DNA of 64,000 bases from GCF_053078305.1 NZ_CP166879.1; one strand, 5' to 3'; shown: positions 1-13,776, counted from the stretch's first letter. The notes: generated by a model not told the origin, from the sequence alone. Program-made: numbers and translations.

Positions 1-1909
1 TATGCTGGGATTCACCAGGCCAGGCGCGTATTAATGGCGTCAGTTTGCGGGCGGTGTCATCGTTACCAAGAACGCCTAACGCAGTGAACGCCCAACTCTC
101 TTTCGACGGTGCGCCCGCAGTCAACCAGGCGGTAAACAGATCCCAGGCAAATTCAGCCAGTGAGTCGGCGGTACAGGCATCTTTCACCTGCAATAATCCC
201 GGATACAGGGCCTCTTCCTGAGGGAAGCGGAGCATTTCACCGAGGTGCTGGAGTGCGCTATCTGGCAGTACCTTGCTGCTATTTTTGATTTTCGGGCGAG
301 TCCATAATGGAGGTTGATAAAACAACGGTAAAGGGGGGATTTTCGCCGGGTATTTACCCACAGGACTGTTGTCGTTATTTTTATTTTGAGTTTCCCAGGG
401 CGGCGAGACTAGTACCATTGGTAGAATTTCTGAGTTTGCAAAATCTTCATTGCGACTATTCAGCAATTGCTGACATTGTTGCAATAAATTTGCCGCTTGC
501 GACGATAATCCGATGACTAATTTTTCAACCAATAAAGGATTTGCATTAAGTAATGAAACCAGCAACGTATGTTTGCGTTTATCATCTTTTTTTACCAATG
601 CTTCGGCTAATGCCGCTATCGTGGCAGAAGGAAAATTTTCGGCACTTTTTATTAGTCGTTCATAACAGCGTTTATTAGTATCGGCGGCTTCGATGAGTGC
701 CGTAATGGCCAACGGATGATTAATACATTTCAGTACGTCACCGCAATTATCTTCTTCAGCATAGGGAGCCAGGCGAGCCAGTGCCGCTATACCTTGCTCC
801 CGTAATACCGTAGCTGACCAACTGGCACCATAGGTGTTAAATACATCAATGTATTGATAGTTCTCCAGTATTTCGAGCGTGAATGGATCTGTCGCTACCA
901 GTTTCAACATTTCAAGTTGTGGAACATCTGCGACCTGGTGTAAACGATGTACGATCTCATGGGCCACTTCGGGTATTTCTGGCATTAAAATGGCAATTAA
1001 CGGTTGGCGAAAGAGTGATATATCTGGTAACGCAACGAGTAATTTTGCAATGCAATTTTGCCATACTTCTTCTTCTGCTAGTGATAAATGTTTACGCAGA
1101 CGTAAACTAAATTTGTCGTTATTCCTTCTATAACTGTCCTTGCTGCTATCTGCATAATTAATAAAGAAAGTCAAAAGTTCATCTTTATAGTCAAAATCGA
1201 AATCAATTTGCCACCAGAAGATGACAGTTTCAGTTGCGTATTCGATACCGAAGGTGCTTACAATTTCATCCAGCAACTCGGATGAGGTTTCATCATTCCA
1301 GCCCTGACAAAAACATATTTCCAGAAAAGTAAGTACCGCCATAGTACGCGCGGGTATCTCAGTCTTTTGGGCCTTAATTAAGCTGATTGCCTGGCTAATC
1401 GCATCAGCCCATTCATCAGAGCATGAGCTGTAATCGAAAGTCAGATTTTTATAATAATGATAAGTACGATTTGCCAATCGGGAAATTAAATTTTGTTTCT
1501 CGGGTTTGGTTGGTTTTTTTACTGGCTCTCCCGGCCAAAGGCGGTGGCTGAGGGCATGGCGGGCAATATTCGGGGGAAGAATAATGGGATCGTTGTCTGC
1601 CAGCCAGGGTAAACCATTAGTTGCTGCCTGGCGATTTATTGAGGCTTTTTCCTCTGTGACCAGGACTTTCTTTGCTGAGGCATCATGTGAGTGAGCGTTA
1701 GCGTCTACTTGCTCCACATACCCCTTCTTCACCTTCTCCGCAATCAGCTTCAGTTCCGCTTTTTCTGCCGCCGCAGCATCAGCAAAGCTTTTTACCTGAC
1801 TTTGCCCGTTAGTGCCGACTTTGCCCCAGTTGATATGCAGCTCGTTTCTCTGCTGCTCCACCGCCCAGAATTTATGTGATTTTTCGTCCTGATAAATATA
1901 GGTTTTCAT
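1..1909 (-). CDS. yehI: Large WGR-domain protein, N-terminal part only (gene runs off the window start); paralog of molR
   Basis: ATG at 1909 on the minus strand; translation begins MKTYIYQDEKSHKFWAVEQQRNELHINWGKVGT, a WGR-type motif. Open frame continues to position 1 with no stop. Nucleotide sequence is near-identical to the 5' end of the adjacent molR. Confidence 0.7.
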   Translation of the reverse strand, partial: MKTYIYQDEKSHKFWAVEQQRNELHINWGKVGTNGQSQVKSFADAAAAEKAELKLIAEKVKKGYVEQVDANAHSHDASAKKVLVTEEKASINRQAATNGLPWLADNDPIILPPNIARHALSHRLWPGEPVKKPTKPEKQNLISRLANRTYHYYKNLTFDYSSCSDEWADAISQAISLIKAQKTEIPARTMAVLTFLEICFCQGWNDETSSELLDEIVSTFGIEYATETVIFWWQIDFDFDYKDELLTFFINYADSSKDSYRRNNDKFSLRLRKHLSLAEEEVWQNCIAKLLVALPDISLFRQPLIAILMPEIPEVAHEIVHRLHQVADVPQLEMLKLVATDPFTLEILENYQYIDVFNTYGASWSATVLREQGIAALARLAPYAEEDNCGDVLKCINHPLAITALIEAADTNKRCYERLIKSAENFPSATIAALAEALVKKDDKRKHTLLVSLLNANPLLVEKLVIGLSSQAANLLQQCQQLLNSRNEDFANSEILPMVLVSPPWETQNKNNDNSPVGKYPAKIPPLPLFYQPPLWTRPKIKNSSKVLPDSALQHLGEMLRFPQEEALYPGLLQVKDACTADSLAEFAWDLFTAWLTAGAPSKESWAFTALGVLGNDDTARKLTPLIRAWPGESQH

Positions 1910-1921
1910 TGCTAAATCCTT

Positions 1922-4900
1922 TTAATCAAACAGTGATTCAATGTCGTTAATCAGCTCGCTGGCGGTGATGTCGTCGAGCACGGAGAAAGTGGGTGAGGAT
2001 TGTTTACCATAGCGATCATAAGGGGCGGTGATTTTTACGCTTTCGACAGGCAGCAGGTCGCTATACCCCGTTTCGCCATAAATTAATGAAAAAGGTTCTG
2101 TTTCAAGTTCGAGAGCACCATAAGGGGTAGATTTGCGCATCGCATAGACGCTGCCGCTTTCTTCCAGACGTTGCCAGCCTCTGCGTTCCAGCCCGACAAT
2201 GCGTCCGGCCTGGCAAAGCCGTCCTTGCCAGCGTGTCAGTTCGTGAGTATTACGTTCATTGTCAGCAAGGTGATAGCTACCTCGCTCGAGCTGTTGGAAA
2301 GGGGGAAGCAGTTCGTAATCAACGTAAATTTGCCTGAATGCAGCGGCGGATTCAGGGGGGATTTCCAGCACATGCGGTATACCGATGTTTCCTGCTGGCA
2401 GCGTGAATAACTCATCCTGCGCATCGCTGTAAGTGCTGTCTTCTGCCACGCGAAAACAGGTGATAAGGGCGTTTTCATCGTTATAAACCCCCCATAACAG
2501 CCGTCGGGTTAAGTGACGTACCAGCGGATGCTCCACCAGAAACAGGCGGAACTGCTCTGCCGTCCATCGTCTGCGCTGGCACATAGCCTGTTCCAGACGG
2601 GTAATTTGCTGGCTGGCGATAGCACGAACATCTTTTTTCAACTGTTTGAAGAGATTAACCGCGTCAGTTGCCTGATTTTTTTCATCGCTCTGGTTTGGTT
2701 TGGGCAAATCTTTCAGGACTTTGCCGTTTGCGTCGCGCACTACAGGTTTTAAAGTTTCGTCAAAACCAACGGTAAATTGACGTGGGCCGAAATCCAGTGT
2801 CAGCGAGCCACTGCTATCAAGCCCTAAATCCGGTGCCAGGCGATCTTCCAGTTCGGCCATAGTCAGCCCACGGTTTTCAGCGACCATATTGATTCTGTCG
2901 CTGGCATGTTCCTGTAATGCAACGAATTTAATCTTTTGCGCAATGCCATTAAGCAACATAAGCGCAATGTCGCTACCGATACTGGCTAACACATCCAGCC
3001 CGTACACCGCCCGTTTATGCTGGGATTCCCCAGGCCAGGCGCGGATAAGCGGGGTTAATTTACGCGCGGTGTCGTCATTGCCTAAAATCCCAAGCGAAGT
3101 AAATGCCCAGTTTTCTTTTGCGGGTGCGCCAGCTTCTGTCCAGGCGGTATACAGATCCCAGCCAAATTCAGCCAGTGATTTGCGGGTGAAGATTTCTCTA
3201 ATGATATCCAGCCCAGCGTAGGCGGTAATGTCGCGAGGAAAGCTCAGCATAGTGCCGAGGTGGCGCATAGCGTCATCTGACAGAGGCAGGTTGTTACTTT
3301 TAAGCCGAGGTCTGCGCCACAAGGTGAACTGATAAAAGCCGGACAGTGGGGCGATTTTAGCGGGATATTCTTCCAGTGGGTCGCTATCGAACAATGTTGC
3401 CAGCGCAGCTAAAACATCAGGTTGATTATATCCTTGCGCGATTTCCTCAATCGTTTCTCGCTGGTTTAAATTCACCAGCAGACGAAGCGCCTGGTGGGCA
3501 CAATCACGATCTTTTCCTTTTTTGCCCAGGGCCACAGGAAGTAGCCCGGCGGCGGCATGGCGTGGATAATCAGTTAGCCAGTTTCGCGCATCTTCATAAG
3601 ACATTTTTTTCTGTAATTGTTGCGCCATCGGTAAGGCCAGTTCACTGACACCGAGGAAAAAGGGGAAGAAGCACAGACGTCGTGGATCACGTTGCAGGCA
3701 GGCCATAAATGCAGGTATGGCGGCGCTACCAAAAATTGCCAGAATATTTCCCTCACCAGAGTAGTTATCTTCTTTGACTATCTGGTTAAGAAAAGAAATG
3801 GCCTGTTGACCAGGCAGGTAACAGAGGGCAATGAGATTCCAGCTTTTGTATGCATTGTTATGATATTGCACAAATTCAGCATTGAGTGCTGGAAAATCGA
3901 AGCGTAGCAGGGCATCAACGGCGCTTTGTGGCGCCGGAATTTTTTCGTATATTTTTTCTCCGCTTTCCCGCCATTTTTCAAAACCAAGATGCCACAGTAT
4001 TTGTTGCTCCGGTGTAAGCGGTATTAAGTGTTTCTCCCAGCTTGCTTTTTTGATCGGCGGCAGGTCGGTAAACAATGTTTGTTTTGTCGCCTGCTGTTGG
4101 GCTATTTGCTGGAAGTGGGTGACAAGGTAAGTACGGGTCAGTTTTTTGGTAATCTCTGGAGTGACATCAGAAACAGAAGGAACTGGAAGCACTGGAAGAT
4201 CAAACACAGGCGTATTTTTCTTTTTCTCTTTGGTCATCCAGGGCGGCGAAACAAGCAGCTCCGGCAACATATCCACAGTGGCATATTCACATTCTTCAGC
4301 TACTGGCTGCGGACGACATTCAGATAAGATGCCAGCGGCTTTGGCGTTAACCCAGGGAATAACGTCAGTGACTAACTCTGGCGTAGCGGTAATCAGTTTG
4401 ACAAGCGCTTTACGCCACTCTTTATCTTCATGTATTGCCAGCAAAGTAGCATAAGCCGCAATAGCCGCAGCGGGATGCTTTTGACTGGCCTTGCTTAAGT
4501 ATTCCAGGTGCTTTTTCTTACCAATTACACCGAGGATCAGAATTTGAATCGCATCCGGGTGATTCGTTTTCCATAGCCATTTGACAAGATTTTCAGTCTC
4601 GCTGATGCGTTCGAAGAGATAAGTGGGATTGTCAGAATGGTCTTCCGTAAACTCAAGAAGTATCCGGCTTACACCGCGCACCCCATTATTTGCCAACAAC
4701 ATTGCCAGATAAGCGCGAAAATTACGAAAATCACGATACAACGGTGGGAAGTCGTATTTTTCCACTGTACTCAGAGCAGTATCATCGGTTATCACCAGTC
4801 TTAACCAGGTCATCGCCGGGACGTTTTGATCTGCATAGCGTAGAGCTATAGCATGGGCGATATCCGGGCGTTCAGGGAGCAGTAACGCCGCAAAAGGTTG

Positions 4901-5731
4901 CCGTGCGGGGGATAGCGTCGGAATGGCGGTGAGTACTTTATCTACACAGCGTTGCCACTCATCTTCTGAAGCGAGTGAAAGATGATGACATAGACGTTGA
5001 TGCCAACTCGGCAGCGATTCTGCTTTGTGATTAGGTGGAATGATGGTGGTTACTGCGCCTTTTACTGGTTTATATTTGAGTTGAAGGGCAAAAAGGACGA
5101 TTTCAACGGCGCTTTCCAGACCACAGCGAATGACTAAGTCATCGACCAGTTCATCTGCAGAGTAAGAGTTCCAAAAACTCCAGAGCAATGCTGCATCAGA
5201 TTGCGCACTCCCTGTCTGTTGATTATCCAGAATTCGCCTTTGTAACTCAGCAAAAGCCTGCTGCCAGTTTTCTGGATAAGTGCGGTAATTGTTGTCGGGA
5301 TCATATGCCCTGGTGTTATCTGCAATACGCTTCCATATCTCACCGTCTTTGCGCAGATAATTGATCTCTCTGGGGCGAGAGCGATGAGGAAAAGCAAATC
5401 GGTTAATATCGTCAGTTACCGGAATAACTGCATCATCAGCCAGCCACGGGCGTTGGTTTTTACTCTCAGGGGAAGTTTCAACTTCAGGAGTGGCTTTGGT
5501 GATGGGGGGGATATGCACGTTTGCTGAAGCATTTTCCACATAGCCTTTTTTCGTTTTCTCCGCGATAAGCTTCAGTTTCGCTTTTTCCGCTGCTGCAACA
5601 TCAGCAAAATTTTTTACCTGGCTTTGCCCTTGGGTGCCAACTTTTCCCCAACTGATATGCAACTCGTTTCCCTGTTGCTCCACCGCCCAGAATTTATGTG
5701 ATTTTTCGTCCTGATAGATAAAGTGTCTCAT
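1922..5731 (-). CDS. molR: Large WGR-domain protein (molybdate metabolism regulator family), intact, 1269 aa
   Basis: Uninterrupted 1269-aa ORF next to metG. N-terminus MRHFIYQDEKSHKFWAVEQQGNELHISWGKVG is a WGR motif. Position matches the molR locus, which I recall as a fragmented pseudogene in K-12. Confidence 0.8.
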   Translation of the reverse strand: MRHFIYQDEKSHKFWAVEQQGNELHISWGKVGTQGQSQVKNFADVAAAEKAKLKLIAEKTKKGYVENASANVHIPPITKATPEVETSPESKNQRPWLADDAVIPVTDDINRFAFPHRSRPREINYLRKDGEIWKRIADNTRAYDPDNNYRTYPENWQQAFAELQRRILDNQQTGSAQSDAALLWSFWNSYSADELVDDLVIRCGLESAVEIVLFALQLKYKPVKGAVTTIIPPNHKAESLPSWHQRLCHHLSLASEDEWQRCVDKVLTAIPTLSPARQPFAALLLPERPDIAHAIALRYADQNVPAMTWLRLVITDDTALSTVEKYDFPPLYRDFRNFRAYLAMLLANNGVRGVSRILLEFTEDHSDNPTYLFERISETENLVKWLWKTNHPDAIQILILGVIGKKKHLEYLSKASQKHPAAAIAAYATLLAIHEDKEWRKALVKLITATPELVTDVIPWVNAKAAGILSECRPQPVAEECEYATVDMLPELLVSPPWMTKEKKKNTPVFDLPVLPVPSVSDVTPEITKKLTRTYLVTHFQQIAQQQATKQTLFTDLPPIKKASWEKHLIPLTPEQQILWHLGFEKWRESGEKIYEKIPAPQSAVDALLRFDFPALNAEFVQYHNNAYKSWNLIALCYLPGQQAISFLNQIVKEDNYSGEGNILAIFGSAAIPAFMACLQRDPRRLCFFPFFLGVSELALPMAQQLQKKMSYEDARNWLTDYPRHAAAGLLPVALGKKGKDRDCAHQALRLLVNLNQRETIEEIAQGYNQPDVLAALATLFDSDPLEEYPAKIAPLSGFYQFTLWRRPRLKSNNLPLSDDAMRHLGTMLSFPRDITAYAGLDIIREIFTRKSLAEFGWDLYTAWTEAGAPAKENWAFTSLGILGNDDTARKLTPLIRAWPGESQHKRAVYGLDVLASIGSDIALMLLNGIAQKIKFVALQEHASDRINMVAENRGLTMAELEDRLAPDLGLDSSGSLTLDFGPRQFTVGFDETLKPVVRDANGKVLKDLPKPNQSDEKNQATDAVNLFKQLKKDVRAIASQQITRLEQAMCQRRRWTAEQFRLFLVEHPLVRHLTRRLLWGVYNDENALITCFRVAEDSTYSDAQDELFTLPAGNIGIPHVLEIPPESAAAFRQIYVDYELLPPFQQLERGSYHLADNERNTHELTRWQGRLCQAGRIVGLERRGWQRLEESGSVYAMRKSTPYGALELETEPFSLIYGETGYSDLLPVESVKITAPYDRYGKQSSPTFSVLDDITASELINDIESLFD

Positions 5732-5830
5732 TCTGCATCCCTGTAATTTTATCCAGTTGAATGCAGATGCTACCAGTATTTATGCGGGTTAGAGAGAGAC
5801 AAAATCGCAAGAAAACAACTTTAGGAATAT

Positions 5831-5862
5831 ATAAAGAAAAGGCGCTGTCGATGCAGCGCCTT
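5831..5862 (-). terminator. Probable intrinsic terminator downstream of metG
   Basis: Inverted repeat ggcgctgtcgatgcagcgcc (5841-5860) followed on the minus strand by a T-rich run. Confidence 0.5.
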
Positions 5863-5871
5863 GAAGGGGGA

Positions 5872-7905
5872 TTATTTCACCTGATGACCCGGTTTAGCAC
5901 CGGCATCCGGGCTTAGCAGGAAAATATCTTTCCCGCCAGGACCGGCAGCCATCACCATGCCTTCAGAGATACCGAAGCGCATTTTACGTGGTGCCAGGTT
6001 AGCCACCATAATGGTGTGACGACCAATCAGTGCCTGCGGATCTGGGTAAGCAGAACGAATGCCGGAGAAGACATTGCGTTTTTCACCGCCGAGATCCAGC
6101 GTCAGGCGTAGCAGTTTGTCAGAACCTTCAACAAACTCTGCGTTTTCAATCAGCGCCACGCGCAGGTCAACTTTGGCGAAGTCGTCAAAGGTGATGGTTT
6201 CCTGAATCGGATCATCTGCCAGTGGGCCAGTAACTGGCGCGGCAGCTGCTTTCACTTCTTCTTTAGACGCTTCCACCAGTGCTTCAACCTGCTTCATATC
6301 TATGCGGTTATACAGCGCCTTGAACGGATTCACTTTATGGCCCAGCAGCGGTTGCTGGATACCATCCCAGGTCAGTTCTGTATTGAGGAATGCTTCTGCA
6401 CGTTCAGTCAGTTTCGGCAGTACCGGTTTCAGGTAGGTCATCAGCACGCGGAACAGGTTGATGCCCATCGAGCAAATTGCCTGCAGGTCGGCATCGCGGC
6501 CTTCCTGTTTCGCCACCACCCACGGAGCCTGTTCATCGACATAGCGGTTAGCCAGATCAGCCAGCGCCATGATTTCGCGCACTGCTTTACCAAATTCGCG
6601 GCTTTCCCACGCTTCACCAATCACTTCAGCGGCATCAGTGAAGGTTTTGTACAACTGCGGGTCAGCCAGTTCGCTTGCCAGCACACCGTCAAAACGCTTG
6701 TTGATAAAGCCCGCATTACGAGAGGCCAGGTTAACCACTTTGTTAACGATATCGGCATTCACGCGCTGAACGAAATCTTCCAGGTTGAGATCGATATCAT
6801 CAATGCGCGAAGAGAGTTTCGCAGTGTAGTAGTAACGCAGGCTGTCGGCGTCAAAATGATTCAGCCAGGTGCTGGCTTTAATAAAGGTACCGCGAGACTT
6901 GGACATCTTCGCGCCGTTCACCGTCACATAGCCGTGAACAAACAGGTTGGTCGGCTTGCGGAAGTTGCTACCTTCCAGCATTGCTGGCCAGAACAGGCTG
7001 TGGAAGTAAACGATATCTTTACCGATGAAGTGGTACAGCTCGGCGGTGGAGTCTTTCTTCCAGTATTCATCGAAGCTTACGCTATCGCCGCGCTTGTCGC
7101 ACAGATTCTTGAAAGAACCCATGTAGCCAATCGGTGCGTCCAGCCAGACGTAGAAATATTTGCCCGGCGCGTTCGGAATTTCAAAACCGAAGTACGGTGC
7201 GTCGCGGGATATATCCCACTGTTGCAGGCCAGATTCAAACCACTCCTGCATTTTGTTTGCCACCTGCTCCTGCAACGCACCGCTGCGGGTCCATGCCTGC
7301 AACATTTCGCTGAAAGAGGGCAGATCAAAGAAGAAGTGTTCAGAATCACGCATTACCGGGGTAGCGCCAGAAACCACCGATTTCGGCTCGATCAGTTCAG
7401 TCGGGCTGTAGGTCGCGCCGCAGACTTCGCAGTTATCGCCGTATTGATCCGGGGATTTACATTTCGGGCAGGTGCCTTTCACAAAACGGTCCGGCAGGAA
7501 CATGCCTTTTTCCGGATCGTACAGCTGAGAGATGGTGCGGTTTTTAATAAAACCGTTTTCTTTCAAGCGAGTATAGATAAGCTCAGACAACTGGCGGTTC
7601 TCTTCGCTGTGCGTCGAGTGATAGTTGTCATAGCTGATGTTAAAGCCTGCGAAATCAGTCTGATGCTCCTGACTCATTTCGCCAATCATCTGCTCCGGGG
7701 TGATACCAAGCTGCTGAGCTTTCAGCATGATCGGTGTACCGTGGGCATCGTCGGCGCAGATGAAGTTGACCTCGTGGCCGCGCATTCGCTGGTAACGGAC
7801 CCAGACATCAGCCTGGATGTGCTCCAGCATATGGCCGAGGTGGATTGAGCCGTTAGCGTACGGCAGTGCGCACGTCACCAGAATTTTCTTCGCGACTTGA
7901 GTCAT
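5872..7905 (-). CDS. metG: Methionine--tRNA ligase
   Basis: ORF translation contains [26 protein letters not shown] (HIGH-type motif) and KMSKS (in ...[10 protein letters not shown]...). Start taken at the MTQ methionine, 3 codons inside the track ORF. Confidence 0.95.
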
Positions 7906-8036
7906 AGTAGGCATTACTTCTTAATAGTGAAAAGGGGTTAGATAGTACCAAATGGGAAAATGTTAAGTAAGTACTTCTCTATATTCTTCAGGTAAACTAT
8001 CAGCTGATGGTTTATCTATACAAAAAAGGAGTCGGG

Positions 8037-9146
8037 ATGAACGAACAATCCCAGGCCAAATCACCAGAAGCCTTGCGCGCAATGGTCGCCGGGACACTGG
8101 CCAATTTTCAGCACCCAACCCTGAAGCATAACCTCACCACGCTGAAAGCGTTGCACCATGTCGCCTGGATGGACGACACGTTGCATGTGGAACTGGTTAT
8201 GCCATTCGTCTGGCATAGCGCGTTTGAAGAGTTAAAAGAGCAATGTAGCGCCGAACTGCTGCGTATCACCGGGGCGAAAGCTATCGACTGGAAACTGTCG
8301 CACAATATCGCCACCTTAAAACGCGTGAAGAATCAGCCGGGTATTAATGGCGTGAAGAACATCATTGCGGTCAGTTCCGGTAAAGGCGGCGTGGGTAAAT
8401 CCTCCACGGCGGTAAACCTGGCGCTGGCACTGGCGGCGGAAGGGGCGAAAGTCGGCATTCTGGACGCCGATATCTACGGCCCATCAATTCCCACCATGCT
8501 GGGCGCAGAAAATCAGCGTCCAACTTCGCCGGACGGTACCCATATGGCACCGATTATGTCTCATGGCCTGGCAACCAATTCAATTGGTTATCTGGTCACT
8601 GACGACAATGCGATGGTGTGGCGTGGACCGATGGCGAGCAAGGCGTTAATGCAGATGTTGCAGGAAACCTTGTGGCCGGATCTCGACTATCTGGTGCTTG
8701 ATATGCCGCCAGGCACCGGTGACATTCAATTGACGCTGGCGCAAAACATTCCAGTAACTGGTGCAGTCGTGGTCACCACCCCGCAGGACATCGCGTTGAT
8801 CGATGCGAAAAAAGGCATTGTGATGTTCGAGAAAGTCGAGGTTCCGGTGCTCGGTATTGTCGAGAACATGAGTGTGCATATTTGCAGTAACTGTGGTCAC
8901 CATGAACCGATTTTCGGTACCGGTGGTGCAGAGAAACTGGCTGAAAAATACCATACACAGCTGCTGGGGCAGATGCCGTTACACATCTCCTTACGTGAGG
9001 ATCTCGATAAAGGCACGCCAACGGTTATCAGCCGTCCGGAGAGCGAATTTACCGCTATCTACCGCCAGCTGGCTGACCGCGTTGCAGCTCAGCTCTACTG
9101 GCAGGGTGAAGTCATTCCAGGCGAGATTTCCTTCCGCGCGGTCTAA
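8037..9146 (+). CDS. mrp: Fe-S cluster carrier ATPase Mrp/ApbC
   Basis: Translation has the P-loop SGKGGVGKSST and a CxxC motif (CSNCGHHE). Divergent from metG as in E. coli. Start taken at MNEQSQAKSPE. Confidence 0.92.
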   Translation: MNEQSQAKSPEALRAMVAGTLANFQHPTLKHNLTTLKALHHVAWMDDTLHVELVMPFVWHSAFEELKEQCSAELLRITGAKAIDWKLSHNIATLKRVKNQPGINGVKNIIAVSSGKGGVGKSSTAVNLALALAAEGAKVGILDADIYGPSIPTMLGAENQRPTSPDGTHMAPIMSHGLATNSIGYLVTDDNAMVWRGPMASKALMQMLQETLWPDLDYLVLDMPPGTGDIQLTLAQNIPVTGAVVVTTPQDIALIDAKKGIVMFEKVEVPVLGIVENMSVHICSNCGHHEPIFGTGGAEKLAEKYHTQLLGQMPLHISLREDLDKGTPTVISRPESEFTAIYRQLADRVAAQLYWQGEVIPGEISFRAV

Positions 9147-9176
9147 CGCCTATTAACCATTCTGGTTATTCTTCAT

Positions 9177-9217
9177 ACACCGCAGAGATGTTACATTGAT
9201 GCGGTGTATTTGTTTTT
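9177..9217 (+). terminator. Probable intrinsic terminator after mrp
   Basis: Hairpin acaccgcag...ctgcggtgt followed by atttgttttt. Confidence 0.5.
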
Positions 9218-9407
9218 GCCGCATTAATGAACACTTATTTAATACTGCGAATATTCTGCGGACCTTCGTCCGAAACTCTACAAAGTCGATTGATCGTACA
9301 GGCAATGCTTCATTATCATCCTTCGTGCTGTGTAGTGGATGTACAGCTATAGTTTGTTATGCACTCATTCTATCCAGGCATAACCTTTACTACAGGGATA
9401 ACGTTCA

Positions 9408-9689
9408 ATGAATAAGTATTGGCTGTCAGGAATTATTTTTCTTGCCTATGGATTGGCTTCTCCCGCGTTCTCTTCAGAGACTGCCACATTAACGATTAAT
9501 GGCAGGATCAGTCCCCCAACATGCAGTATGGCTATGGTTAATAGTCAACCTCAACAGCATTGTGGTCAGTTAACGTATAATGTCGATACCCGTCATCAGG
9601 TTTCTTCGCCCGTCAAAGGTGTAACGACAGAAGTGGTTGTTGCAGGTAGTGATAGCAAACGTCGAATCGTGTTAAATCGCTACGATTAA
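9408..9689 (+). CDS. yehE: Small secreted protein at the head of the yeh fimbrial locus
   Basis: 93-aa ORF with an N-terminal signal-peptide-like stretch MNKYWLSGIIFLAYGLASPAFS; sits between mrp and yehD as in E. coli. Confidence 0.7.
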   Translation: MNKYWLSGIIFLAYGLASPAFSSETATLTINGRISPPTCSMAMVNSQPQQHCGQLTYNVDTRHQVSSPVKGVTTEVVVAGSDSKRRIVLNRYD

Positions 9690-9719
9690 TTTGGCAACCT
9701 GATTTTAATTGCATTTAGA

Positions 9720-9759
9720 AAGCCGAAATCATTTATATAAATGATTTCGGCTTTTTTTA
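9720..9759 (+). terminator. Probable intrinsic terminator after yehE
   Basis: Long hairpin aagccgaaatcatttatataaatgatttcggctt followed by ttttttt. Confidence 0.5.
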
Positions 9760-9982
9760 TTGATATCAACAATACCATTTACATAAATCTACATTAATTA
9801 ATAGATGCGATAAATATTTAATACTCTTAAGTATTTGTTGTATTTATATTGCAATGGTTAATTTGTTTTAAATCAATAAAACAATATGTTTACATTGCGG
9901 CAACTTTTTTGATGTGAGAAATTTGTTTCCAAGAGATACAGACTCTTAACAACCAAAAATAAATTTTATTAAGGAACATATT

Positions 9983-10525
9983 ATGAAACGTTCAATTATT
10001 GCTGCCGCTGTCTTTTCTTCTTTTTTTATGAGCGCTGGAGTATTTGCTGCAGACGTTGATGCCGGAACATTAACTATTAAAGGGAATATTGCAGAATCTC
10101 CGTGTAAATTCGAAGCGGGTGGTGATTCAGTAAGTATTAATATGCCGACTGTACCAACCACTGTCTTTGAAGGTAAAGCTAAATATTCTACCTATGATGA
10201 TGCAGTCGGTGTAACCAGCAGCATGTTAAAAATTAGCTGCCCGAAAGAAGTTGCTGGTGTAAAACTCTCGTTGATTACCAACGATAAAATAACTGGTAAC
10301 GATAAGGCGATAGCCAGTAGCAACGATACTGTGGGTTACTATCTCTATTTAGGTGATAACAGCGATGTCCTGGATGTTTCTGCACCTTTTAATATTGAGA
10401 GTTATAAAACAGCGGAAGGTCAATATGCTATTCCGTTTAAAGCAAAATACCTGAAACTGACAGATAACTCAGTGCAATCAGGTGATGTGTTATCTTCTCT
10501 GGTTATGCGTGTGGCGCAGGATTAA
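9983..10525 (+). CDS. yehD: Fimbrial major subunit (chaperone-usher pathway)
   Basis: 180 aa with signal peptide MKRSIIAAAVFSSFFMSAGVFA and a fimbrial-subunit-like C-terminus; first gene of a subunit–chaperone–usher–adhesin set. Confidence 0.85.
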   Translation: MKRSIIAAAVFSSFFMSAGVFAADVDAGTLTIKGNIAESPCKFEAGGDSVSINMPTVPTTVFEGKAKYSTYDDAVGVTSSMLKISCPKEVAGVKLSLITNDKITGNDKAIASSNDTVGYYLYLGDNSDVLDVSAPFNIESYKTAEGQYAIPFKAKYLKLTDNSVQSGDVLSSLVMRVAQD

Positions 10526-10562
10526 TAAATAAAATTGCAAGTTTCTCTAGGTAATAAACATG

Positions 10563-10588
10563 GCCGCTATCCCCATGGCGGCTTTTTA
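10563..10588 (+). terminator. Hairpin between major subunit and chaperone genes (possible attenuator)
   Basis: gccgctatccccatggcggc followed by ttttt. Confidence 0.4.
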
Positions 10589-10605
10589 ATTTAAGAGGCA
10601 TTAAG

Positions 10606-11280
10606 ATGAAAGGATTATTATCTTTACTCATTTTTTCTATGGTCCTTCCTGCACATGCCGGAATTGTTATCTACGGGACGCGCATTATTTACCCGGCAGA
10701 AAATAAAGAAGTTATGGTGCAGTTGATGAACCAGGGAAACCGTTCTTCGCTGCTGCAGGCGTGGATTGATGATGGCGATACGTCATTACCACCAGAAAAA
10801 ATTCAGGTTCCTTTCATGTTAACGCCACCAGTGGCAAAAATAGGGGCAAATTCCGGGCAGCAAGTAAAAATCAAAATTATGCCGAATAAACTGCCCACTA
10901 ATAAAGAAAGCATTTTTTATCTGAATGTTCTGGATATTCCACCAAATAGTCCAGAACAAGAAGGTAAGAATGCACTGAAGTTTGCGATGCAAAACAGAAT
11001 CAAATTGTTTTACCGGCCGGCGGGTATTGCTCCGGTAAATAAAGCGACCTTTAAAAAGTTACTGGTAAATCGCAGTGGCAATGGATTGGTGATAAAAAAT
11101 GACTCAGCTAATTGGGTGACGATTTCGGATGTCAAAGCTAATAATGTCAAAGTCAATTATGAAACTATTATGATTGCCCCCTTAGAAAGTCAGAGTGTTA
11201 ATGTCAAAAGTAATAATGCAAATAACTGGCATCTGACCATTATCGATGACCATGGCAACTATATTAGTGACAAAATTTAA
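10606..11280 (+). CDS. yehC: Fimbrial periplasmic chaperone (PapD-like)
   Basis: 224 aa with signal peptide; the yehD–yehC–yehB–yehA arrangement is typical of a chaperone-usher operon. Confidence 0.85.
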   Translation: MKGLLSLLIFSMVLPAHAGIVIYGTRIIYPAENKEVMVQLMNQGNRSSLLQAWIDDGDTSLPPEKIQVPFMLTPPVAKIGANSGQQVKIKIMPNKLPTNKESIFYLNVLDIPPNSPEQEGKNALKFAMQNRIKLFYRPAGIAPVNKATFKKLLVNRSGNGLVIKNDSANWVTISDVKANNVKVNYETIMIAPLESQSVNVKSNNANNWHLTIIDDHGNYISDKI

Positions 11281-11295
11281 TTGCAGGAGCTGCCT

Positions 11296-13776
11296 ATGTT
11301 GAGAATGACCCCACTTGCATCAGCAATCGTAGCGTTATTGCTCGGCATTGAAGCTTATGCAGCTGAAGAAACCTTTGATACCCATTTTATGATAGGTGGA
11401 ATGAAAGACCAGCAGGTTGCAAATATTCGTCTTGATGATAATCAACCCTTGCCGGGGCAGTATGACATCGATATTTATGTCAATAAGCAATGGCGCGGGA
11501 AATATGAGATCATTGTTAAAGACAACCCGCAAGAAACATGTTTATCAAGGGAAATTATCAAGCGGTTAGGCATTAATAGCGATAACTTCGCCAGCGGTAA
11601 GCAATGTTTAACATTTGAGCAACTTGTTCAGGGTGGGAGCTATACCTGGGATATCGGGGTTTTTCGTCTCGATTTCAGTGTCCCGCAGGCCTGGGTGGAA
11701 GAACTGGAAAGTGGCTATGTTCCACCGGAAAACTGGGAGCGGGGTATTAATGCGTTTTATACCTCTTATTATGTGAGTCAGTATTACAGTGACTATAAAG
11801 CGTCGGGTAATAGTAAGAGTACATATGTACGTTTTAACAGCGGGTTAAATTTACTGGGGTGGCAACTGCATTCTGATGCCAGTTTCAGTAAAACAAATAA
11901 CAATCCAGGGGTGTGGAAAAGCAATACCCTGTATCTGGAACGTGGATTTGCCCAACTTCTCGGCACGCTTCGCGTGGGTGATATGTACACATCAAGCGAT
12001 ATTTTTGATTCTGTTCGCTTCAGAGGTGTGCGGTTGTTTCGTGATATGCAGATGTTGCCTAACTCGAAACAAAATTTTACGCCACGGGTGCAGGGGATTG
12101 CTCAGAGTAACGCGCTGGTAACTATTGAACAGAATGGTTTTGTGGTTTATCAGAAAGAGGTTCCTCCTGGCCCGTTTGCGATTACAGATTTGCAGTTGGC
12201 CGGTGGTGGAGCAGATCTTGATGTCAGCGTGAAAGAGGCGGACGGTTCGGTAACCACCTATCTGGTGCCTTATGCAGCCGTGCCAAATATGCTGCAACCC
12301 GGCGTGTCGAAATATGATTTTGCGGCGGGCCGTAGCCATATTGAAGGGGCGAGCAAACAAAGTGATTTTGTCCAGGCGGGTTATCAGTATGGTTTTAATA
12401 ACTTATTGACGCTGTATGGTGGCTCGATGGTCGCGAATAATTATTACGCGTTCACTTTGGGGACTGGCTGGAATACACGCATTGGTGCCATTTCCGTCGA
12501 TGCCACGAAGTCGCATAGTAAACAAGACAACGGCGATGTGTTTGACGGGCAAAGTTATCAAATTGCCTATAACAAATTTGTGAGCCAAACGTCGACGCGT
12601 TTTGGTCTGGCGGCCTGGCGTTATTCGTCGCGTGATTATCGGACATTTAATGATCACGTTTGGGCTAACAATAAAGATAATTATCGCCGTGATGAAAACG
12701 ATGTCTATGACATTGCCGATTATTACCAGAACGATTTTGGCCGTAAAAATAGCTTTTCTGCCAATATGAGCCAGTCATTGCCAGAAGGCTGGGGTTCTGT
12801 GTCATTAAGTACGTTATGGCGAGATTACTGGGGGCGTAGCGGCAGTAGTAAGGATTATCAGTTGAGTTATTCCAACAACCTGCGACGGATAAGCTATACC
12901 CTCGCGGCAAGCCAGGCTTATGACGAGAATCATCATGAAGAGAAACGTTTTAATATTTTTATATCGATTCCCTTTGATTGGGGTGATGACGTTTCGACGC
13001 CTCGTCGGCAAATATATATGTCTAACTCAACGACGTTTGATGATCAGGGGTTTGCCTCAAATAATACGGGATTATCAGGAACAGTAGGGAGTCGGGATCA
13101 GTTCAATTATGGTGTCAACCTGAGTCATCAACATCAGGGAAATGAAACGACAGCTGGAGCGAATTTAACCTGGAACGCGCCGGTTGCGACAGTGAATGGC
13201 AGTTATAGTCAGTCGAGTACTTATCGACAGGCTGGAGCCAGTGTTTCAGGGGGCATTGTCGCCTGGTCGGGTGGCGTTAATCTGGCGAACCGTCTTTCCG
13301 AAACGTTTGCTGTGATGAATGCGCCAGGAATTAAAGATGCTTATGTCAATGGGCAAAAATATCGCACAACAAACCGTAATGGAGTGGTGGTATACGACGG
13401 AATGACACCTTATCGGGAAAATCACCTGATGCTGGATGTGTCGCAAAGCGATAGCGAAGCAGAATTGCGCGGTAACCGGAAAATTGCCGCCTCTTATCGC
13501 GGCGCGGTTGTACTGGTTAATTTTGATACCGATCAGCGCAAGCCCTGGTTTATAAAAGCGTTAAGAGCGGATGGGCAACCATTAACGTTTGGTTATGAAG
13601 TCAATGATATCCACGGTCATAATATTGGCGTTGTCGGCCAGGGAAGTCAGTTATTTATTCGCACCAATGAAGTACCGCCATCGGTTAATGTGGCAATTAA
13701 TAAGCAACAAGGACTTTCATGCACAATCACCTTCGGTAAAGAGATTGATGAAAGTAGAAATTATATTTGCCAGTAA
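11296..13776 (+). CDS. yehB: Fimbrial outer-membrane usher
   Basis: About 826 aa with a signal peptide, the size expected for a fimbrial usher. Start taken at MLRMTPLASA. Confidence 0.88.
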   Translation: MLRMTPLASAIVALLLGIEAYAAEETFDTHFMIGGMKDQQVANIRLDDNQPLPGQYDIDIYVNKQWRGKYEIIVKDNPQETCLSREIIKRLGINSDNFASGKQCLTFEQLVQGGSYTWDIGVFRLDFSVPQAWVEELESGYVPPENWERGINAFYTSYYVSQYYSDYKASGNSKSTYVRFNSGLNLLGWQLHSDASFSKTNNNPGVWKSNTLYLERGFAQLLGTLRVGDMYTSSDIFDSVRFRGVRLFRDMQMLPNSKQNFTPRVQGIAQSNALVTIEQNGFVVYQKEVPPGPFAITDLQLAGGGADLDVSVKEADGSVTTYLVPYAAVPNMLQPGVSKYDFAAGRSHIEGASKQSDFVQAGYQYGFNNLLTLYGGSMVANNYYAFTLGTGWNTRIGAISVDATKSHSKQDNGDVFDGQSYQIAYNKFVSQTSTRFGLAAWRYSSRDYRTFNDHVWANNKDNYRRDENDVYDIADYYQNDFGRKNSFSANMSQSLPEGWGSVSLSTLWRDYWGRSGSSKDYQLSYSNNLRRISYTLAASQAYDENHHEEKRFNIFISIPFDWGDDVSTPRRQIYMSNSTTFDDQGFASNNTGLSGTVGSRDQFNYGVNLSHQHQGNETTAGANLTWNAPVATVNGSYSQSSTYRQAGASVSGGIVAWSGGVNLANRLSETFAVMNAPGIKDAYVNGQKYRTTNRNGVVVYDGMTPYRENHLMLDVSQSDSEAELRGNRKIAASYRGAVVLVNFDTDQRKPWFIKALRADGQPLTFGYEVNDIHGHNIGVVGQGSQLFIRTNEVPPSVNVAINKQQGLSCTITFGKEIDESRNYICQ

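Follow-up and report, generated by a model that had tools for sequence, protein, structure and literature searches.

Which genes form the array beside metG in Escherichia coli, why are their 5′ ends so alike, and what might their giant products do? These questions are raised by a stretch of 64,000 nucleotides (nt) of E. coli DNA (NZ_CP166879.1), referred to here as the window, whose left end (positions 1 to 5731) holds two large neighboring genes, A and B. Comparison with complete genomes shows this portion to be the first two genes of a three-gene tandem array, A-B-yehI. The closest complete genome, that of E. coli FDN-24 (97.9% identity over 8 kb), carries after metG gene A (1269 amino acids), a middle gene (1010 amino acids, with WGR and DUF4132 domains), yehI (1210 amino acids), yehK, yehL, yehM, yehP, and yehQ.

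Gene identities and the WGR box

An earlier sequence-only reading of this DNA rightly described two adjacent genes on the same strand, A being intact and B open up to the window edge (both lie on the minus strand), and both products indeed begin with a WGR domain (Pfam E values of 2e-18 for A and 3.6e-18 for B). The names that it assigned do not hold. The partial gene, called yehI there, aligns with yehI over no more than 143 nt, at 67% identity, and is 98.95% identical to the middle gene of FDN-24; it stays open for 636 codons, and its FDN-24 counterpart is a short allele. The true yehI lies beyond window position 1 and encodes no WGR domain. The partial product of gene B shares ∼40 to 46% amino acid identity with YehI in two aligned stretches, and YehI aligns with the gene A protein only from residue 95 of the latter onwards, sharing its architecture there. 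The intact gene, called molR, is likewise a different one: across its entire 3796 nt, the K-12 molR pseudogene shares 92.2% identity with gene B of strain MSB1_7A, while its similarity to gene A amounts to ∼70% over ∼910 nt of the conserved C-terminal region plus the WGR box. The window B allele in turn shows 92 to 93% nucleotide identity with K-12 yehF/yehH in the 3′ 1.5 kb. MG1655 annotates the old molR as yehF (274 amino acids, "PF05406 family") plus the pseudogene yehH, and the disruption mentioned in the sequence-only reading is present there in the form of two lesions, one of them a stop at codon 275 and the other a +1 insertion close to nt 2846. The mutation originally named molR presumably maps elsewhere on the chromosome. 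Sequence similarity makes gene B, of which the window carries an allele with an internal deletion, the ortholog of K-12 yehF/yehH, and gene A a third paralog without a counterpart in K-12. The suggestion that more about molR is to be learned from the intact copy falls away with this assignment, since gene A is a different paralog that is absent from K-12.

The array is old. Klebsiella oxytoca carries orthologs of all three genes in the same order beside metG, with amino acid identities of 56% (A), 65% (B), and 60% (YehI), and comparison of these orthologs shows the three paralogs to predate the Escherichia/Klebsiella split. Gene A is absent from Klebsiella grimontii, and Erwinia and Serratia contain one B-like copy each. 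In Escherichia and Klebsiella, metG is the conserved upstream neighbor of the array.

The resemblance of the 5′ ends is confined to a short box. Positions 1713 to 1910 align with 5535 to 5732 at 84% identity, far above chance; the repeat therefore exists, but with ∼31 mismatches over 198 nt in an ungapped alignment, the ends are not "almost identical" as had been stated. Between A and B, synonymous divergence (dS) is 0.55 to 0.97 in codons 1 to 66, the WGR box, and is saturated elsewhere (proportion of synonymous differences of 0.63 to 0.82), the conserved C terminus included. At positions encoding the same residue in both genes, 65 to 75% of the codons in the box are identical, compared to a background of 37 to 52% (Fisher P values of 6e-5 to 3e-3, six pairs). 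Six A and five B haplotypes differ in the box by 6 fixed differences (nt 7, 8, 11, 15, 168, and 186) and share 10 polymorphisms, and the A alleles FDN_A and PKF_A carry runs of B-type variants. The nucleotide identity of the box between A and B is 83 to 88% in E. coli and 80% in K. oxytoca, compared to 76 to 78% for A-A and 73 to 75% for B-B pairs across the two genera, whereas the whole proteins show the reverse order, with 55 to 65% identity between orthologs and 43 to 47% between paralogs. Within the tract, paralogs are thus closer inside a lineage, and outside it orthologs are closer, which is the pattern expected of concerted evolution. Excess codon identity in the box is also found in K. 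oxytoca and in one Rhodanobacteraceae genome. Because of the excess synonymous identity, the shared polymorphisms, and the closer relationship of paralogs within a genus than of orthologs across genera, recurrent gene conversion is supported as the process that keeps the 198-nt WGR box of A and B alike. The proposal of conversion between the paralogs, made from the sequence alone, holds for this box, and the result defines a domain-sized conversion tract.

That the similarity of the 5′ ends arises without any conversion, solely from purifying selection acting on the WGR protein sequence or on features of the 5′ mRNA, is very improbable. The WGR domain is strongly conserved as a protein, the Bacteroides WGR domain in PDB entry 2ra8 still matching it, and the ratio of nonsynonymous to synonymous substitution rates (dN/dS) within the box is ∼0.1. 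Protein constraint, however, does not account for the surplus of identical synonymous codons, which is seen in the WGR box alone and takes the similarity beyond the protein level, for the shared polymorphisms and mosaic tracts, or for the grouping of the paralogs by genus instead of by orthology. A scan of window positions 1 to 9200 against Rfam returned no RNA family to account for the conserved 5′ box.

Bacterial paralogs such as tufA and tufB evolve in concert through gene conversion. A and B resemble this pair in being closer to each other within a lineage than the orthologs are between lineages and in their excess synonymous identity; they differ in that conversion appears confined to a 198-nt domain-coding box in otherwise saturated genes and in that this box also mediates crossover between A and B. 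The single genes of the two-gene arrays of K-12 and UTI89 are A-type from nt 1 to ∼120 and B-type from nt 168, and because A-type variants give way to B-type variants, these genes are read as A/B chimeras with their junction in the WGR box; across their full length they share 92% identity with B. Deletion through unequal crossover is the likelier direction in which the two-gene arrays arose, because outgroups carry three-gene arrays. New in this respect are the corrected gene identities and the recognition of K-12 "molR" as an A/B chimera of the second paralog.

A second repeat had also been proposed to reflect conversion. It exists, at positions 1 to 172 and 3016 to 3187 with 76% identity, but the conversion signal does not extend to it: identical codons make up 44 to 57% (not significant), equal to the gene-wide background, and the block was rejected as a conversion tract. 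It contains the family-invariant residues W864, G884, and W899, and its similarity, judged by these codons, reflects constraint at the protein level. A third small exchange tract may lie in the final 66 nt of A and B, as MSB_B (the gene B allele of MSB1_7A) carries A-type patches there; the signal is weak and extends over these 66 nt only.

Domain architecture and the linked YehLMPQ module

The Pfam WGR domain (PF05406) is found with 66.7 bits in A and 65.9 bits in B (cut-off of 22), and DUF4132 (PF13569) is found with 175 bits in A (E value of 1.8e-51; cut-off of 27). The C terminus of B lies outside the window; its FDN-24 counterpart scores 181 bits for DUF4132. An AlphaFold2 model of residues 1 to 1200 of A, built from a 54-sequence alignment, reaches a predicted local distance difference test score of 87.2 and a predicted template modeling score of 0.73. 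It shows a β-rich WGR domain (residues 1 to 66), a disordered linker (residues 71 to 90), nearly all-helical repeats, and an α/β module from residue ∼975. A Foldseek search of this model against the PDB gave one significant match, the WGR domain of 2ra8, plus weak matches to HEAT/ARM solenoids, and the WGR domain adopts the fold of the PARP WGR type. Fold searches detected no enzyme fold in the gene A model. For an ADP-ribosyltransferase (ART)/PARP catalytic domain, there was no match in Pfam and no ART fold beyond the WGR domain in the fold searches, and NCBIfam returned only sub-threshold fragments of WGR, GvpN, and chelatase. According to the model, the gene A product is a large nonenzymatic protein consisting of the WGR domain, the linker, a HEAT-like α-solenoid, and a conserved C-terminal α/β module with DUF4132.

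In agreement with the sequence-only reading, no function is on record for these proteins and the name "molybdate regulator" is historical: the literature searches returned no functional paper on DUF4132, on yehLMPQ, or on WGR in connection with MoxR, SWIM, vWA, or anti-phage activity, no curated family matches beyond the two Pfam domains, and the name molR has been dropped from MG1655. Nor did the domain searches place the proteins in a well-characterized family. The genes belong to a catalogued yet uncharacterized family, and the array proteins are among the largest E. coli proteins without a known function. The term "WGR" in phage papers apparently refers, judging by their topics, to the unrelated similarity measure wGRR.

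The closest solved relative of the WGR domain is PDB entry 2ra8, the uncharacterized protein Q64V53 of Bacteroides fragilis (E value of 5.7e-18, 58% over 65 columns). Only residues 2 to 68 of A align, with residues 3 to 69 of the 362-residue chain, and the remainder is unlike the solenoid or DUF4132. In PARP1, PARP2, and PARP3, the WGR domain tethers the enzyme at DNA breaks. The array proteins lack the ADP-ribosyltransferase, helical regulatory, and zinc-finger domains of these enzymes, and the motif here reads W-G-K. K-12 YehI and YehF/YehH belong to the same DUF4132 family and the same locus as A and B; the K-12 locus differs from the window in lacking gene A, the window in turn carrying a B allele with a divergent N-terminal half and a deletion of ∼250 amino acids, and YehI being devoid of a WGR domain.

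The HEAT-like solenoid is hypervariable between alleles, and the conserved core of the family is formed by the C-terminal ∼550 residues, which are strongly kept across phyla. At E values of up to 1e-3, 9176 clusters at 50% identity match the query. A single extra architecture is found by Pfam among the longer family members, in which HAMP-HisKA-HATPase domains precede WGR-DUF4132. One metagenome contig (L010, positions 6883 to 13379) shows this arrangement with a response regulator upstream; the fusion is either real or an artefact of assembly or gene calling.

The main functional lead comes from the linked yehLMPQ genes, which lie outside the window and were missing from the sequence-only reading. 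Related loci were compared in beta-, gamma-, and deltaproteobacteria and in mycobacteria, mostly in Proteobacteria (78 loci among the 80 most similar to the query). Adjacent homologs on the same strand are found for YehL in 58 of the 78 loci, for YehM in 56, for YehP in 53, and for YehQ in 51. Tandem DUF4132 arrays of 2 to 8 copies occur in 22 of the loci, several of them with the WGR-bearing copies first and a WGR-less copy beside yehL, as in E. coli. By domain type, YehL belongs to the AAA_5/MoxR ATPases, its best relatives of known structure being midasin AAA domains and a MoxR protein, YehP is a CoxE-type VWA protein (VWA/MIDAS), YehM consists of DUF5682, and YehQ has a SWIM zinc finger. 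Sequence searches of the PDB with YehM and YehQ gave no match, and no paper mentioning DUF5682 was found in the literature searches.

With an AAA_5/MoxR protein and a CoxE-type protein encoded by adjacent, co-oriented genes, in FDN-24 as well as in the loci counted above, the module resembles the MoxR-VWA remodellers RavA-ViaA, CbbQ-CbbO, NorQ-NorD, and CoxD-CoxE as well as midasin/Rea1. In contrast to the characterized pairs, it adds DUF5682, SWIM, and WGR-DUF4132 partners that have no counterpart there. The five linked genes seem to make up a variant of the MoxR-VWA systems that has yet to be described, and the family emerges as a fixed partner of this AAA+/VWA/SWIM module. Among the largest expansions are arrays of six to eight DUF4132 genes in Massilia spp. 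(L038, L069, L039, and L033), larger than that of E. coli, in which copies with and without WGR are mixed and some of which lie upstream of a single yehLMPQ set. At one metagenomic locus (L009, positions 1097 to 7247), the genes for the α and β subunits of nitrile hydratase lie directly upstream of a WGR-DUF4132 gene plus an AAA_5 gene.

A proposed adaptor role and its alternatives

The explanation preferred here, considered somewhat likelier to be right than wrong, joins the ancient three-gene array and the conversion of the WGR box with a role of the DUF4132 proteins as interchangeable nucleic-acid-binding adaptors of the YehLMPQ machine. The proteins would act as adaptor or sensor scaffolds for one AAA+/VWA engine. 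Contact with the YehLMPQ ATPase-VWA remodeller would be made through the C-terminal module, a docking surface proposed because both the module and its YehLMPQ partners are conserved. By analogy to PARP1 to PARP3 at DNA breaks, the complex would be anchored to nucleic acid through the WGR domain, the variable solenoid would determine which clients are recognized, and the multiple paralogs would serve as alternative adaptors. The process served could be defence against foreign nucleic acid or housekeeping remodelling. In this way, giant proteins of unknown function are turned into a testable proposal, that of a nucleic-acid-tethered adaptor for a midasin-like remodeller.

Several points weigh against this explanation. 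Nucleic-acid binding by the array WGR domains is assumed from the PARP enzymes and from structural similarity. The linkage between DUF4132 and YehLMPQ is statistical and comes from loci sampled with a bias toward relatives of the query; homologs without the module also occur (L007 and L008). The frequent pseudogenes in the array and in yehLMPQ, together with the silencing of yehLM by H-NS, allow for a system that is often inactive in E. coli. As for conversion, the Massilia arrays show no excess codon identity in the WGR box, so that the process is not universal in the family; the statistics of the box draw on ∼38 synonymous sites per pair and 11 haplotypes, and the direction of the array deletions is taken from the outgroups.

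A tentative alternative sees the array and YehLMPQ as an undescribed anti-phage or anti-plasmid immune system, with the paralogs as diversified sensors and the AAA+/VWA module transducing or executing the response. Allele diversity would suit such a role. Gene B falls into at least three allele classes with barely alignable N-terminal halves and C-terminal halves that are 92 to 96% identical, the amino acid identity dropping to 22 to 45% in residues 67 to 500 versus C-terminal halves at 96%. The N-terminal half of gene A is present in only 1643 of 5426 complete E. coli genomes (30%) and falls into three identity bands (at least 95% in 329 genomes, 90 to 95% in 614, and 80 to 90% in 700). The expansion to up to 8 paralogs and the frequent independent decay fit as well, as do two features of the neighborhood. 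The genes z3289 and z3290, which are taken here to be the zor-orz system, form the first of these. They are small type I toxin genes located in the yehI-yehL intergenic region of most E. coli strains, not of MG1655 (PMC2887945), and because they map there, a toxin-antitoxin pair lies inside the cluster. The second is silencing: the DNA upstream of yehL is bound by H-NS, and expression of both yehL and yehM is elevated in hns/stpA mutants (PMC3686432).

The searches for immune functions speak against this alternative. PADLOC-DB v2 gave no meaningful match among seven cluster proteins, six remaining without any match and gene B having one marginal match to WGR only (E value of 0.0047, 13 bits). 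Domain and fold searches found no nuclease, protease, NADase, or pore domain. By tblastn, the family occurs in 0 of 50,697 phage records and in 30 of 72,556 plasmid records, many of the latter chromosome- or megaplasmid-sized. The locus has kept its place in the chromosome since Escherichia and Klebsiella separated, in line with vertical inheritance, and dN/dS along A, B, and yehI is 0.1 to 0.25 (0.01 to 0.02 for metG), with no sign of positive selection at that resolution. A bolder and somewhat more doubtful form of the idea holds that the array and YehLMPQ constitute a widespread, chromosomally fixed surveillance or immune system in which WGR-solenoid sensors would feed a midasin-like engine and the 5′ WGR box would be a recombination cassette that reshuffles the sensors.

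It is unlikely that the genes encode a housekeeping MoxR-VWA maturation or chaperone system, for instance for metal-cofactor insertion as with CoxD/CoxE, NorQ/NorD, and CbbQ/CbbO, in which the DUF4132 proteins would be adaptors or clients. The domain types of YehP and YehL, the weak GvpN and chelatase similarities, the vertical inheritance, the very wide distribution, and the nitrile hydratase genes at one locus are compatible with such a system. Hypervariable alleles, presence/absence variation, and frequent pseudogenes would nevertheless be unusual for a maturation factor, no conserved client gene stands beside the module across the loci, and it is not obvious what a WGR domain would contribute to inserting a cofactor. 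If true, this reading could make the old "molybdate" name partly right by accident.

Still harder to sustain is the idea that the genes are decaying E. coli relics without a current function and that the similarity of the WGR box is a by-product of repeat recombination. Decay is widespread: pseudogenes include molR in K-12, yehQ in NBRC 3301 (K-12 line), yehM in UTI89, both yehL and yehM in MSB1_7A, and genes A and B of strain 141, strain SY3626 carries an IS1 deletion and Shigella sonnei has deletions as well, and the window B allele lacks ∼250 conserved residues. Open reading frames of 1000 to 1270 codons are nonetheless intact in most genomes, dN/dS stays at the low values given above along their length, the orthologs have been kept in order since the Klebsiella split, and the C-terminal module is strongly conserved across phyla. 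As a practical consequence, K-12 is a poor choice of strain, its array and possibly yehQ being damaged, and strains with an intact array are preferable for experiments.

A role as MolR-type transcription factors of molybdate metabolism is scarcely credible, given that the historical name persisting in some database entries and the description of WGR as the DNA-binding domain of "MolR-like TFs" (PMC7824862) are set against solenoid proteins of 1000 to 1270 amino acids in which Pfam and NCBIfam detect only WGR and DUF4132 and no molybdate-binding or classical DNA-binding regulator domain, an MG1655 annotation without the name molR, and a literature in which no supporting papers were found.

Layout, allele variation, and mobility of the locus

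The coordinates of the features are collected in Table 1. Because the terminator-like hairpin of metG precedes gene A, the latter probably has its own predicted promoter in positions 5732 to 5838. The short A-B spacer suggests that A and B are probably cotranscribed and translationally coupled.

Table 1. Features at the left end of the window, with coordinates counted from its first nucleotide
Feature	Position	Strand	Description
Gene A	1922..5731	(-)	Intact open reading frame, 1269 amino acids/codons; WGR, helical repeats, and DUF4132; first array gene
Gene B, N-terminal 636 codons	1..1909	(-)	WGR and helical repeats; ATG at 1909, open, no stop before the window edge
WGR box of gene A, codons 1-66	5534..5731	(-)	Supported gene-conversion tract and crossover site
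WGR box of gene B, codons 1-66	1712..1909	(-)	Partner of 5534-5731
Pfam DUF4132 domain, gene A residues 1003-1186	2174..2725	(-)	Inside the family-conserved C-terminal module (residues ∼630-1190)
Conserved block of gene A, residues 849-905, "FGWDL...RAWPGESQH"	3016..3187	(-)	76% identical to 1-172
Conserved block of gene B	1..172	(-)	Counterpart of 3016-3187
Last 22 codons of gene A	1925..1990	(-)	79-86% identical to the 3′ end of gene B alleles
A-B spacer, 12 nt, AAGGATTTAGCA	1910..1921	(-)	Shine-Dalgarno-like AAGGA, read from the sequence
Deletion junction in the gene B allele	364..373	(-)	In-frame, ∼250 amino acids; from alignment
Terminator-like hairpin of metG	5839..5862	(-)	9-bp stem and T-run; consensus scan and sequence
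metG (methionine-tRNA ligase)	5872..7905	(-)	Annotation of matching genomes

The first homolog search returned only Escherichia alleles, and a protein identical to the gene A product is recorded in E. coli (P0001). The N-terminal half of the window B allele occurs in 409 of the 5426 genomes and is nearly clonal (at least 99% identity). The part lost from this allele corresponds to residues 506 to 784 of gene A and 521 to 769 of MSB_B and includes nearly invariant family residues, e.g., K709/710 and W718 (A numbering); despite its open frame, the window B allele may be functionally impaired. Between E. coli strains, dS reaches 0.06 to 0.24 in metG and up to 0.17 in apbC (window positions 5872 to 9146), with nearly no amino acid change. 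This high synonymous divergence of the flanking genes suggests old haplotypes or frequent recombination reaching past the array.

Strain SY3626 illustrates how the whole system can be lost. Here, IS1 truncates gene A after ∼890 nt (L090, positions 5288 to 6893), the remaining array and yehK are gone, and an IS4-like element splits yehM. In sublineage L1a of sequence type 131 (ST131), the blaCTX-M-15 transposon TnMB1860 is inserted in the metG/DUF4132/yeh region, with the array disrupted in 184 isolates (PMC9334617). The E. coli plasmid NZ_CP103756.1 (181 kb) contains DUF4132 gene sequence at ∼124.6 to 126.0 kb, which at the nucleotide level is 94% identical to window positions 1 to 269 and in amino acids resembles the C-terminal part of A at ∼63% identity; a piece of the chromosomal array locus has apparently moved onto this plasmid.

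Between yehK and yehL, FDN-24 shows a gap of ∼1.2 kb without an annotated gene (L002, positions 7617 to 8856); it corresponds to the intergenic region, named yehI-yehL in PMC2887945, for which z3289 and z3290 are described. Judging by the matching genomes, window positions 9200 to 64000 should hold yehE, the yehDCBA fimbrial operon, rcnRAB, thiMD, and genes beyond.

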